Shown here: positions 29,395 to 31,347 of the stretch, in pieces
Position numbering within the stretch: the stretch's first letter is position 1
Layout of the letters: each line of letters begins with the position of its first letter
DNA from: Gaiellaceae bacterium
Lineage (GTDB): Bacteria > Actinomycetota > Thermoleophilia > Gaiellales > Gaiellaceae
Length of the DNA stretch: 64,000 nt
NCBI GenBank assembly: GCA_050697375.1
Contig: JBOGZQ010000006.1
Span: 1,390 to 65,389 of the forward strand
Direction of reading: 5' to 3'
Notes under the pieces: model-generated
Seen by the model: only the letters and a program-made list of their open reading frames with translations
Database searches by the model: none
What the model was told of the DNA's origin: nothing
Translations under genes and position numbers: made by a program

Positions 29395-31347
29395 GTGCAG
29401 GACGTTCTCGAGGTTCCGAACGAGGTTGCGGCGGAGCTCGCCGGGATCGGCGACGGCGTGCTCGACGCGCTCCGCGACCGGCTCGGCTGCGCGGTCAACC
29501 TCCGCGGCAACAGGCTGACGCTCGACGGCGACGAGGCCAAGGTGACCGAGGCCCGCGCGGTCGTCGAGGAGCTCGTCGAGCTCGTCGAAAGCGGGCAGGA
29601 GGTCGGCGCGGGAACGGTCGACACGATCCTCCACGCGATCGACCAGGCCGAGGACGTCCGCGACATCTTCGAGGACGTGATTTGGTCGCACCGGGGCAAG
29701 CGCATCACGCCGAAGACGGTGACGCAGAAGCGCTACGTCGACGCGATCCGCAGCTCGACGCTGACCTTCGGGATCGGGCCGGCAGGCACGGGCAAGACGT
29801 ACCTCGCCGTCGCACTCGCAGTCGCCGCGCTCTCGGAACGCCAGGTCGGGCGCATCATCCTCACCCGTCCCGCCGTCGAGGCGGGCGAGCGGCTCGGCTT
29901 TCTTCCGGGCGACGTCGCCGCGAAGGTCGATCCGTACATGCGGCCGCTCTTCGACGCGCTCTACGACACGATGGATCCCGAGCGCCTGAACACGTATCTC
30001 GAGCGCCAGACGATCGAGGTCGCGCCGCTCGCATTCATGCGTGGCCGCGCGCAACCGGTGTGGAGCGGAGTCCTGACGCCGGACGGCTTCAGGCCCATCG
30101 GGAGCTTGCGTATCGGCGATCTGGTCATCGGGTCGGATGGGTTCCCGACCCCCGTCCTTGGCGTCTATCCGCAGGGCCGGAAGGACGTGTTCCGCGTCCG
30201 CACGCAAGACGGTGCGTCGACGACGTGCTGCGGCGAACATCTGTGGCACGTGTTCACGCACGCAGACCGTCGGCGAGGAAAACCCGGCCGCGTGCTGGAG
30301 ACGCGAGAGATGATCGGGCATCTGCGGACGTTCCATCAGCATCGATTCGAGCTGCCCCTGCTCTCGGGGTCTGTCGAATTCGAGCCTCGCGATGTCCCGA
30401 TCGACCCGTATGCCCTCGGTTTGCTTCTTGGGGACGGCTGCCTCACGACGAGCACCACGCCGAGCTTCACGACCTCCGATCCGGAGCTCGCGCATGCTCT
30501 CGAGGCGTCACTCGACCGGATCGAGCTTCGCCACATCGACGGCCACCGCGGCGGCGTTATCGTCGCCAACCCTGTGACGGCTGCGCTTCGCGAGCTTGGA
30601 CCGGCGGGCAGGCGGTCGAGCACGAAATTCATTCCGGCCGCCTACCTGCGCAACTCGCCGGACGTCCGAATCGCGGTTCTTCAGGGCCTTCTGGACACGG
30701 ACGGCGGACCTGTAACGCAAAAGAACCGGACGTGCCGGATCCAGTACACGACGTGCTCGGCGAGGCTGCGCGACGACGTCGCGGATCTCGTTCGCTCTCT
30801 CGGCGGCGTCGTCTACTGGCGCGTGCTCGACGATGCATTCGTCATGGACATCCGACTGCCGTCTGCGATCGAGCCGTTCCGCCTTCGCCGGAAGCGCGAG
30901 ACCTACAACGAGCATGGCGGCGGTCGGCCGATGCGCTTCATCGACTCGATCGAGCCCGCCGGCGAGGAGGAGACTGTGTGCATCCAGGTCGCAGCGGCCG
31001 ACTCGCTCTATGTGACGGAGCACTACCTCCTGACGCACAACACGCTCAACGACAGCTTCATCATCCTCGACGAGGCGCAGAACACCTCGCCCGAGCAGAT
31101 GCAGATGTTCCTCACGCGCCTCGGTTTCGGCTCGAAGGTCGTCGTCACGGGCGACATCACGCAGGTCGACCTGCCGCGCGAGCAGGCGTCCGGCCTCATC
31201 CAGGTGCAGAACATCCTCGGCTCGATCGACGGCATCTCGTTCGTGCACTTCGGACATGAAGACGTCGTGCGGCACAAGCTCGTGCAGCGGATCGTCGAGG
31301 CGTACAAGCGGCACTCGGAGGAGACCGGGACGGCCCGGCGCCGGTGA
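29395..31347 (+). CDS. phoH: PhoH-like ATPase (YbeZ/PhoH) interrupted by an in-frame intein
   Basis: Track ORF of 650 aa. Exteins: [15 protein letters not shown] (Walker A) ...[12 protein letters not shown] | intein | [28 protein letters not shown] (Walker B). Without the insert the protein is 319 aa, the normal PhoH size. Confidence 0.92.
   Translation: [650 protein letters not shown]
30049..31041 (+). mobile_element. 331-aa intein with LAGLIDADG homing endonuclease; Ala1, class 3-like W/C/T signature
   Basis: It starts [13 protein letters not shown] directly after FMRGR and ends YLLTHN before the +1 Thr. Block B-like CGEHLW has Trp at 30244-30246. Block F-like ETVCIQV has Cys at 30979-30981. 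The intein ends in THN. The two dodecapeptide motifs are [13 protein letters not shown] and [14 protein letters not shown]. Confidence 0.85.

Follow-up and report, generated by a model that had tools for sequence, protein, structure and literature searches.

A probable class 3 intein with a shortened LAGLIDADG endonuclease in the chromosomal phoH gene of a Gaiellaceae bacterium

Introduction

Why is the PhoH ATPase of a Gaiellaceae bacterium encoded as a precursor of 650 residues, interrupted next to its Walker B motif, and what is the interrupting sequence capable of? The gene lies in the 64,000-nucleotide stretch of DNA analysed here (the window). From the nucleotide sequence, it had been proposed to contain a class 3-like intein with a LAGLIDADG endonuclease. 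As described below, the element is very probably an in-frame class 3 intein interrupting a chromosomal phoH gene, the product of which is a YbeZ-type ATPase.

The phoH gene and the insertion site

The phoH precursor gene occupies positions 29395..31347 of the forward strand, on which all features described here are located. It was delimited from the open reading frame, Pfam and the NCBI record, and contains 650 codons, the first of which is GTG, plus a stop codon. The NCBI record for the 650-residue product is MGH2970587.1, "PhoH family protein [Gaiellaceae bacterium]". The Pfam PhoH model (PF02562) matches the open reading frame in two stretches (E=6.8e-90), the first of which stops at residue 219. 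The N-extein (29395..30048) has 218 residues, contains the Walker A motif GPAGTGKT (29776-29799) and ends in ...APLAFMRGR. The C-extein (31042..31344) has 101 residues, starts with Thr+1 (31042-31044) and contains the Walker B strand FIILDEAQN (31057-31083). With a PhoH domain, a Walker A and a Walker B motif, the host protein is a PhoH/YbeZ P-loop ATPase, and in its spliced form it matches the solved structure of C. glutamicum PhoH (PDB 3b85) at 1e-82. The surrounding genes form a housekeeping cluster, yqeY-phoH-ybeY-dgkA...era, in which phoH overlaps its downstream neighbour ybeY by 4 nt. PhoH is a partner of the rRNA-maturation nuclease YbeY. In the public record the PhoH intein is unannotated, and one intein fragment is named merely "LAGLIDADG family homing endonuclease".

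Between the exteins, positions 30049..31041 translate, in frame with the rest of the open reading frame, into 331 residues, from Ala1 to His330-Asn331 (AQPVW...LLTHN), followed by TLND; they make up a HINT splicing domain in which a LAGLIDADG domain is nested. The insertion point, between MRGR and TLND, is such that the Walker B strand begins 5 residues downstream and its Asp-Glu pair is located 10-11 residues downstream. The translation, the split Pfam match and the alignment of spliced PhoH with 3b85, which is gapless across the insertion point, all agree with the predicted insert of 331 residues between MRGR and TLND, and its boundaries are, at the sequence level, exact and unambiguous.

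Excision of the insert leaves a 319-residue protein that is 89-97% identical, over 100% of the length, to more than 100 intein-less 319-residue PhoH proteins of Gaiellaceae. At the DNA level, one intein-less phoH allele (L082), which reads GCCTTCATGAGGGGTCGG/ACCCTCAATGACAGC at the insertion point (slash), is 91% identical to the gene in the window. The insert is thus in frame, missing from orthologues and flanked such that its excision restores the host sequence exactly, as expected of an intein. The original prediction had considered that the 331 residues might instead be a conserved PhoH domain; since close relatives are without the insert entirely, it is an intein and not such a domain. The intein is polymorphic, present or absent, among near-identical Gaiellaceae hosts. 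The two top-scoring matches to the exteins (P0275 and P0276), whose scores are inflated, have no intein but contain internal duplications that probably arose in assembly.

A second intein in the 64,000-nt window was not found by tblastn. The GC content of the intein, around 65-66%, is slightly below that of its flanks (around 69-71%) and equal to that of the C-extein, making GC content uninformative on recent transfer. A footprint of co-conversion was sought among synonymous differences near the insertion point, comparing the window with L082 and with 77 intein-bearing loci; none can be inferred, because the junction-proximal codons, though different from those of L082, vary freely among all alleles.

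Splicing residues and class 3 assignment

The definition of class 3 was taken from PMC2807308 and PMC5050341, and the rule for position +1 (Ser or Thr, rarely Cys) from PMC2807308. In block A (30049..30087), the predicted start at Ala1 is seen directly in the translation (AQPVW...); its counterparts are Cys1 in gp41-1 and Pro1 in the founding class 3 intein, that of mycobacteriophage Bethlehem (Tori et al. 2010). Position 1 contains no Cys, Ser or Thr nucleophile, as in class 3, and the AQP start is nearly invariant within the PhoH intein allele. Block B (30211..30252) contains Cys60-Cys61 (B:6-B:7), His64 (B:10) and Trp66 (B:12); block F (30970..31017) has Cys311, the predicted branch-point nucleophile, at F:4; and block G (31021..31041, HYLLTHN) contributes Thr329 (G:5), His330 and Asn331. 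All residues that had been named (C60, C61, H64, W66, C311, T329, H330, N331 and Thr+1) were located, and the class 3 set of Ala1, His-B10, Trp-B12, Cys-F4, Thr-G5, His-Asn and Thr+1 is complete.

The roles of His65, Trp67, Cys320, Ile321, Phe330, Thr339 and Asn341 of the Bethlehem intein have been fixed by mutagenesis (PMC2807308). His64, Trp66, Cys311 and Ile312 of the window's intein align with Bethlehem His65, Trp67, Cys320 and Ile321, while Tyr321, Thr329, His330 and Asn331 align with Phe330, Thr339, His340 and Asn341. In the solved class 3 structures 6bs8 and 6rix, His64 and Trp66 again align with His65 and Trp67, and in the WCT-grafted structure 6riz, the counterpart of Cys311 is the engineered Cys107, which replaces a native Asp. 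These alignments bear out the proposed placement of Trp, Cys and Thr at B:12, F:4 and G:5.

Within the close family, Trp-B12 and His-B10 are present in 121/121 sequences, Cys-F4 in 120/121 and Thr-G5 in 120/120; the terminal His-Asn is found in 120/120, followed at +1 by Thr (116/120) or Ser (4/120). Among more distant intein domains, drawn from 150 representatives at 50% identity, WCT is present in 121/121. With Trp, Cys, Thr and His-B10 invariant or nearly so both in 120 close homologues and in these 121 more distant domains, the match goes far beyond chance. Residue 1 is Ala in 83/101 close relatives and Ser in 18/101, so position 1 is not uniformly non-nucleophilic across the family, 18% of which has Ser1. 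The definition of class 3 was reportedly widened by Tori and Perler in 2011 to Ser1 and Cys1 cases. Ranked by similarity, the window's intein belongs by descent to the monophyletic class 3 lineage; its phage relatives, at 35-40% identity, sit in mycobacteriophage terminase and helicase genes.

Fold and endonuclease domain

The AF2 model of the intein (pLDDT 85.8, pTM 0.87) indicates that the insert adopts the Hedgehog/intein (HINT) fold, which the Pfam Hint models match weakly. The best Foldseek matches are PI-SceI and VMA intein-endonucleases, including TliVMA (E around 1e-14, TM around 0.7). Among mini-inteins, gp41-1_WCT, MchDnaB1 and Msm DnaBi1 are matched with target-normalised TM scores of 0.74-0.81.

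The predicted LAGLIDADG endonuclease with two dodecapeptide motifs is recognised by Pfam LAGLIDADG_3 (E=1.1e-8, 35.6 bits for a cut-off of 22.5). Motif 1, or block C (30403..30441, LGLLLGDG), has Asp129 as its acidic residue, and motif 2, or block E (30664..30708, LQGLLDTDG), has Asp218. Both LAGLIDADG helices thus end in an acidic residue and both align with the Bethlehem motifs; block D (30619..30648), between them, contains the invariant Lys193. The description of the element as a full-size intein holds, but two in-frame gaps in its endonuclease domain leave this copy 26-29 residues short of the usual family length of 357-360. Gap 1 (30525..30526), between Glu159 and Leu160, corresponds to around 10 residues (family consensus LRRKxxxDYV), and gap 2 (30822..30823), between Arg258 and Val259, to a basic hairpin of around 18 residues (consensus RxRPAxGRxPGRARGRxVxH). 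Both segments are present in 84/96 family members. In the AF2 model, the first LAGLIDADG half is without beta-strands and residues 161-170 have pLDDT values below 50; together with the missing segments, this makes both the completeness of the DNA-binding beta-saddle and homing activity uncertain.

We considered decay of the endonuclease as the origin of the gaps. This is weakened by a dN/dS of 0.19 over the endonuclease domain, the same as over the splicing domain (around 0.2 in both, measured against a relative sharing both gaps), and by the Bethlehem intein, which likewise has a short second hairpin where the window's intein has gap 2. The shortened endonuclease, apparently under purifying selection, could be a still-active minimal LAGLIDADG variant.

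Proposed splicing pathway and alternatives

We infer splicing, its chemistry and the endonuclease activity from characterised relatives. Transposed to the PhoH intein, Cys311 (F:4) would attack the peptide bond between Arg218 and Ala1 with the help of His64 (B:10), while Trp66 (B:12) packs the active site; the N-extein would thereby become linked to Cys311 as a thioester branch. The hydroxyl of Thr+1 would then receive the N-extein, and cyclisation of Asn331, aided by His330, would free the intein. A final O-to-N shift would yield ...MRGR-TLND..., with the new bond 5 residues upstream of the Walker B strand; the ATPase core would stay split until splicing is complete. The nested LAGLIDADG domain would be the mobility module, spreading the element into intein-less phoH alleles. 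In the window's copy, this putative module retains the block D Lys and the two Asp residues presumed to be catalytic, without the two segments common in the family.

The Cys60-Cys61 pair may point to a further role. The original prediction called Cys at B:7 unusual; on the contrary, it is the commonest state, found in 65/121 related domains and in 120/121 sequences of the close family. The Cys-Cys pair at B:6-B:7 is conserved in the PhoH allele outside mycobacteria. The intein might be kept mainly as a conditional switch, in which Cys60-Cys61, near Cys311, would engage in a reversible disulfide or in metal binding, so that PhoH maturation pauses under oxidative or metal stress. In its specific form, with the pair and Cys311 acting as a redox or metal trap, maturation of PhoH would be conditional on oxidative or metal stress. 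Besides the conservation of Cys at B:7, this proposal draws on the class 3 DnaB intein of M. smegmatis, in which H2O2 blocks splicing reversibly by joining the catalytic F:4 Cys to a second Cys in a disulfide, and which zinc inhibits as well (PMC6195587, PMC7360933), and on the position of B:7 near the active site in class 3 structures (PMC6195587). However, it is purely inferential, and mycobacterial PhoH inteins carry Ala-Ser at B:6-B:7, so that the Cys pair is dispensable for persistence of the allele. The patchy presence of the intein among hosts that are 89-97% identical is also more in keeping with a selfish element than with a regulator under selection. We consider retention mainly as a switch unlikely, and the redox or metal trap equally doubtful.

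Less probable still is that the element is dead, a splicing-incompetent remnant that leaves the 650-residue PhoH unmatured and either inactivated or working with a permanent insertion domain. The two segments missing from the endonuclease domain would fit such a remnant, as would the engineered gp41-1 case, in which WCT alone is not enough for splicing. Yet all positions important in class 3 inteins are intact, and these are invariant across the family; the dN/dS of the splicing domain is around 0.2-0.3; and the open reading frame is uninterrupted, in a gene belonging to a conserved housekeeping operon and overlapping ybeY. Moreover, an unspliced PhoH, its core split, would very likely lack activity; even so, the extein shares 96-98% identity with those of intein-less relatives.

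It is similarly improbable that the intein splices by a route other than that of class 3, either by direct attack of Thr+1 in a class 2-like manner, with Cys311 assisting, or with Cys61 (B:7) as the first nucleophile. Ala1 does also occur in class 2 inteins, and a model of the Bethlehem intein puts the +1 hydroxyl and the F:4 sulfur at about equal distances from the scissile bond (PMC2807308). However, class 2 consists of KlbA orthologues, which lack WCT and have Cys+1, Asp at F:4 and Ser at G:6 (PMC4031507); none of this applies to the window's intein, with its Thr+1, His at G:6, Cys at F:4 and WCT triplet. In related class 3 inteins, including those of mycobacterial PhoH, B:7 is occupied by Ser, Asp, Gly or Thr, so a thiol at this position cannot be the general nucleophile. 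The F:4 Cys, in turn, is invariant (121/121) and absolutely required in the Bethlehem intein (PMC2807308). The class 3 pathway, with Cys311 as branch-point nucleophile, is the reading retained here.

Distribution and significance

The original prediction left in doubt whether a PhoH allele had been catalogued; it had, since Novikova et al. counted 21 PhoH inteins in 2015 (PMC4760082) and Kelley et al. in 2018 aligned the PhoH inteins of M. fortuitum and M. xenopi as class 3 (PMC6195587). All of the best 80 genome loci contain the same allele, MRGR/AQP...THN/TLN; they include Mycobacterium, Micromonospora and Streptomyces, with Mycobacterium palustre and Mycolicibacterium brisbanense among the named carriers. 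Copies are also present in genomes labelled Trueperaceae, Chloroflexi/Limnocylindria and Myxococcales. When the intein of Mycolicibacterium brisbanense served as the query of a protein search, the mycobacterial matches were named only "Mycobacterium sp.". Being widespread in Actinomycetota, and with mycobacterial copies already published as class 3, the PhoH intein is not new. Our literature search found no biochemical evidence for the Gaiellaceae or any other PhoH intein. A phage coding sequence annotated as "PhoH" (GX15bay) has no PhoH domain and was ruled out as evidence for a phage-borne PhoH donor.

The intein matters little beyond annotation. What is added is the very wide spread, across Actinomycetota, of a class 3 PhoH allele so far described in a few mycobacteria. 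For intein engineering, the family is a source of hundreds of naturally occurring class 3 inteins that have Thr+1, a non-P-loop site and Arg at -1; some of its natural variants start with Ser1, block B may have Cys-Cys or Ala-Ser, and the endonuclease may be trimmed. If the Cys-Cys pair did act as a redox switch, conditional protein splicing would be extended to the PhoH-YbeY module.

Comparison with known systems

The closest known systems are the mycobacterial PhoH inteins that Kelley et al. aligned, from M. fortuitum and M. xenopi, represented here by those of M. brisbanense (L077), M. palustre (L067) and Mycobacterium sp. M26 (L072). The three representatives interrupt the same host protein at the same site (MRGR/AQP...THN/TLND), have the same class 3 residues and a LAGLIDADG domain, are around 65% identical to the window's intein and form one continuous family of matches with it. 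They differ in being 359 residues long, in retaining both endonuclease segments and in having Ala-Ser at B:6-B:7. To judge from these three genomes, the inteins published for M. fortuitum and M. xenopi presumably occupy the same insertion site.

The Bethlehem "DnaB" intein (gp11, AY500153 7260-9971) is the founding member of class 3. Its eight splicing residues align one-to-one with those of the window's intein, and it shares Thr+1, a non-nucleophilic residue 1, the LAGLIDADG motifs and the block D Lys. However, the two are only 30% identical; the Bethlehem intein starts with Pro1, has Ser at B:7 and is inserted in another host protein and at another site (Gln-1). The DnaB inteins of M. smegmatis (DnaBi1, 6bs8) and M. 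chimaera (DnaB1, 6rix and 6riy) have Ala1, the block B His and Trp and Ser or Thr at +1, and their HINT fold matches the model of the window's intein with target-normalised TM scores of 0.74-0.79. Unlike it, they are mini-inteins without an endonuclease, located at the P-loop of DnaB (GK/S or T), and have Asp at B:7.

The best PDB sequence match of the window's intein is gp41-1 (6qaz, E=1.8e-11), which has a native THN ending and in which the native Asp107 (F:4) aligns with Cys311. In contrast, gp41-1 belongs to class 1, has Cys1 and is split in nature, and the variant grafted with WCT (6riz) is capable of cleavage but not of splicing. PI-SceI and the VMA inteins have the same two-domain architecture of HINT and LAGLIDADG domains, but belong to class 1 (Cys1, Cys+1), contain an additional DNA-recognition region and are only around 16% identical to the PhoH intein described here.

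The insertion in PhoH

The PhoH precursor is encoded by an intact reading frame of 650 codons with a GTG start (29395-31347, forward strand). The Pfam PhoH model matches it with an E-value of 6.8e-90, split into two separate stretches, the first of which spans residues 104-219 (profile positions 2-117 of 205). Translation of 30049-31041 on the forward strand gives the 331 residues that the original prediction had described between MRGR and TLND (AQPVWSGV...YLLTHN), and no other choice of boundaries regenerates MRGR-TLND. Five residues separate the insertion point from the Walker B strand FIILDEAQN (31057-31083) downstream, bearing out the predicted proximity to this motif.

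A spliced query, in which residues 1-218 were joined to 550-650 (319 aa), was used for a protein search. It matched more than 100 intein-less proteins of exactly 319 aa, many labelled Gaiellaceae, with 89-97% identity over 100% of its length. P0277, the best of these, shares 96% of the N-extein and 98% of the C-extein residues with the window's protein, and as DNA the two genes are 91% identical. The suggested boundary check against a known PhoH was run on the solved Corynebacterium glutamicum protein (3b85), and the alignment is gap-free across the insertion site. Full-length intein-less relatives, this alignment and the unique boundaries together establish that the 331 residues are an insertion, as predicted, rather than a domain of PhoH. 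Two intein-less PhoH "proteins" from metagenomes, P0275 and P0276, contain internal tandem duplications of 75-90 residues, in one case spanning the insertion point; these are probably assembly artefacts of mixed strains.

The exact 650-residue protein is held at NCBI as MGH2970587.1, "MAG: PhoH family protein [Gaiellaceae bacterium]"; the record comes from a contig of 73.7 kb and leaves the intein unannotated. The surroundings are an ordinary chromosomal housekeeping cluster, with hrcA, dnaJ, a gene for a MiaB-like radical SAM enzyme, yqeY, phoH, ybeY, a dgkA/PAP2 fusion and, later, era, in a window of 69% G+C. phoH and ybeY overlap by four nucleotides (GTGA, 31344-31347), which contain the stop codon of the former and the GTG start of the latter; therefore, the intein-containing gene is probably translationally coupled to its conserved partner. 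The gene after ybeY (31715-32482) fuses a prokaryotic diacylglycerol kinase domain to a PAP2 phosphatase domain, according to Pfam. A tRNA-Leu (CAA) at 55318-55401 on the reverse strand is the sole RNA gene detected in the 64 kb of the window.

Fold and endonuclease domain

The insert scores above the cut-off for Pfam LAGLIDADG_3 (E = 1.1e-8) and matches the Hint models weakly. In the PDB it matches best, by sequence, the gp41-1 intein (E = 1.8e-11), PI-SceI and three class 3 DnaB inteins, 6rix, 6riy and 6bs8. An AlphaFold2 model calculated from 74 family sequences is confident (pLDDT 85.8, pTM 0.87). Foldseek relates it to PI-SceI, TliVMA and PI-PfuI, which are two-domain intein-endonucleases (E down to 4e-15, TM about 0.7), in agreement with the predicted LAGLIDADG domain, and its splicing part to gp41-1_WCT, MchDnaB1 and Msm DnaBi1 (target-normalised TM 0.74-0.81).

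Most PhoH inteins (84 of 96 members) are 357-360 residues long. Compared with this family, the window's 331-residue copy is short of some 10 residues following Glu159 and, following Arg258, of about 18 that belong to a basic hairpin. Both gaps are shared by the metagenomic P0005, 74% identical to the window's intein, while several other relatives miss the second segment alone. In the alignment, both catalytic residues, Asp129 and Asp218, are kept, as is Lys193 of block D; the model builds no strands into the first LAGLIDADG half, and its residues 161-170 are unreliable. Between the window and P0005 genes, dN/dS is 0.19 for the endonuclease domain and 0.20 for the N-terminal splicing domain, rough values given a dS of about 1. 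This equality, and the fact that the intein of mycobacteriophage Bethlehem also has the second hairpin in short form, argue against simple decay of the domain. The PhoH intein of a Nitriliruptorales MAG (L064, JBOHEE010000515.1) has 389 residues, about 30 above the family norm; set against the shortened window copy, it shows that the length of the endonuclease domain varies in both directions.

Conservation

Class 3 inteins are defined by the lack of a nucleophile at position 1 and by Trp-Cys-Thr at B:12, F:4 and G:5, and usually have Ser or Thr at +1 (PMC2807308; PMC5050341). The 120 closest database proteins among the matches listed are all PhoH with the window's intein, at 60-74% identity. 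Counting the window's own sequence, Trp66 and His64 are present in 121/121, Cys311 in 120/121, and Thr329, His330 and Asn331 in 120/120; position +1 is Thr in 116 and Ser in four. Position 1, with totals reduced by fragments lacking the N-terminal junction, is Ala in 83 and Ser in 18. The Ser1 homologues (SQP...), about 18% of this close family (P0002-P0120; for example loci L030, L048, L060 and L073), keep W, C and T, and are natural examples of the class 3 signature combined with a possible nucleophile at the N-terminus.

Searched exhaustively, 1.84 billion representatives gave 18,036 proteins at E <= 0.001, the best 150 of which yielded 121 full-length intein domains. His at B:10, the W, C and T residues and the terminal Asn are present in all 121, the penultimate His in 120, an initial Ala in 95 and Lys at -1, i.e., P-loop sites (GK-T), in 102. 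In this wider clade B:7 is Cys in 65 domains, Asp in 16, Thr in 14, Gly in 13 and Ser in 10. Cys at B:7, which had been considered unusual, is therefore the commonest state and no anomaly; in the close family, Cys61 occurs in 120/121 and Cys60 in 100/121. These vicinal cysteines, block B positions 6-7, are encoded at 30226-30231, and mycobacterial PhoH inteins have Ala-Ser in their place. No discussion of the pair turned up in the consulted literature on class 3 inteins.

Distribution of the PhoH allele

The original prediction left unchecked whether a PhoH allele had been catalogued; it has. Novikova et al. (PMC4760082) counted 21 PhoH inteins, from Actinobacteria and Deinococcus-Thermus; Kelley et al. 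(PMC6195587, Fig. 6a) aligned those of Mycobacterium fortuitum and M. xenopi with DnaB inteins as class 3, with WCT marked; and one is stated for M. smegmatis (PMC7360933).

When one genome for each prokaryotic species was scanned, at least 598 stretches related to the window's intein were obtained. The best 80 are all in PhoH, as MRGR-[A/S]..THN-[T/S]LN. They include Micromonospora, Streptomyces, Lentzea, Actinoplanes, Kribbella, Pseudonocardia, Mycobacterium palustre, Mycobacterium sp. M26, Mycolicibacterium brisbanense and MAGs labelled Trueperaceae, Chloroflexi/Limnocylindria and Myxococcales. The mycobacterial inteins are about 65% identical to the window's and, judging from these three genomes, those of M. 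fortuitum and M. xenopi are likely to occupy the same site. The allele is 69-71% identical to the window's in the Myxococcales (L028), Trueperaceae (L058) and Limnocylindria/Chloroflexi (L045, L055) MAGs; its presence in genomes labelled non-actinobacterial is due either to transfer between phyla or, in some of the MAGs, to contamination during binning.

Across 76 loci, intein and extein identities are correlated (r = 0.76) and the two are about equally conserved (65-79% and 64-85%). The closest intein-bearing hosts, Gaiellaceae/Gaiellales MAGs (L025, L017, L040 and L010), have exteins merely 81-85% identical to the window's, while dozens of intein-less hosts reach 89-97%. The intein is thus patchily distributed over close relatives, a pattern to be expected of a mobile element gained and lost.

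Homologous inteins occupy the identical site, MRG(R)-AQP...THN-T, in very divergent proteins of the PhoH and PhoH2 types. Among the PhoH/PhoH2-like proteins P0123-P0270 (e.g., P0130, P0126, P0134 and P0141), some of 900-1000+ aa have two class 3 inteins; in others a single intein lies elsewhere, and the breaks are near extein positions 132, which adjoins the P-loop, 172 and 176. PhoH-family ATPases thus have several intein insertion points. The closest phage relatives (35-40% identity) lie in mycobacteriophage terminase and helicase genes and jumbo-phage helicases, in line with the phage origin proposed for class 3 inteins. A 940-aa coding sequence of Caudovirales GX15bay annotated as PhoH (L001, MK557849.1 22352-25174) was rejected as such, having no Pfam PhoH domain; it lies directly upstream of the portal gene and contains a class 3-type intein (HRW ... 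VCIKV ... LVTHN-T) with a LAGLIDADG domain, and its name was probably transferred from intein-containing PhoH proteins.

The feature seen in the window is real and not random, and adds one more member to a class 3 PhoH intein allele that is already published and very widespread. What goes beyond the literature found is limited to the breadth of this allele, how prevalent Cys-Cys is at B:6-B:7, the variants with Ser1 and the trimmed endonuclease of the window's lineage.

Class 3 signature and comparison with known inteins

The founding, mutagenised class 3 intein was located in Bethlehem gp11 (AY500153 7260-9971; 341 residues). Its identification is secure, because nine residues (Ser62, His65, Trp67, Lys319, Cys320, Ile321, Phe330, Thr339 and Asn341) are numbered exactly as published. 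It is 30% identical overall to the window's intein. Aligned, Ala1 corresponds to Pro1 (A:1), Cys61 to Ser62 (B:7), His64 to His65 (B:10), Trp66 to Trp67 (B:12), Cys311 to Cys320 (F:4), Ile312 and Tyr321 to Ile321 and Phe330 (block F), and Thr329, His330 and Asn331 to Thr339, His340 and Asn341 (G:5, G:6 and G:7). A class 2 intein would have Cys+1, Asp at F:4, Ser at G:6 and no WCT, none of which is found here. All sequence-level class 3 features are present, and the sequence places the intein in class 3, upholding the original reading of Ala1, the Trp-Cys-Thr triplet and the class.

By homology with the Bethlehem, Deinococcus radiodurans Snf2 and mycobacterial DnaB inteins, Cys311 would attack the Arg(-1)-Ala1 bond, forming a block F thioester branch; His64 would serve as general base, and Thr329 and Trp66 would shape the site. 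The N-extein would then move to Thr+1, Asn331 would cyclise and an O-N shift would complete the peptide bond. Before splicing, the PhoH ATPase core would be interrupted just ahead of Walker B.

Independent HMMER alignments to solved intein structures support the residue assignments, including Trp66 (6bs8, 6rix) and Cys311 (6riz). In the class 3 DnaB structures from M. smegmatis and M. chimaera, His65 and Trp67 are equivalent to His64 and Trp66, but Asp62 takes the place of Cys61. In gp41-1 the residue equivalent to Cys311 is natively Asp, mutated to Cys in the crystal form carrying the grafted WCT triplet, a graft that is insufficient alone (6riz).
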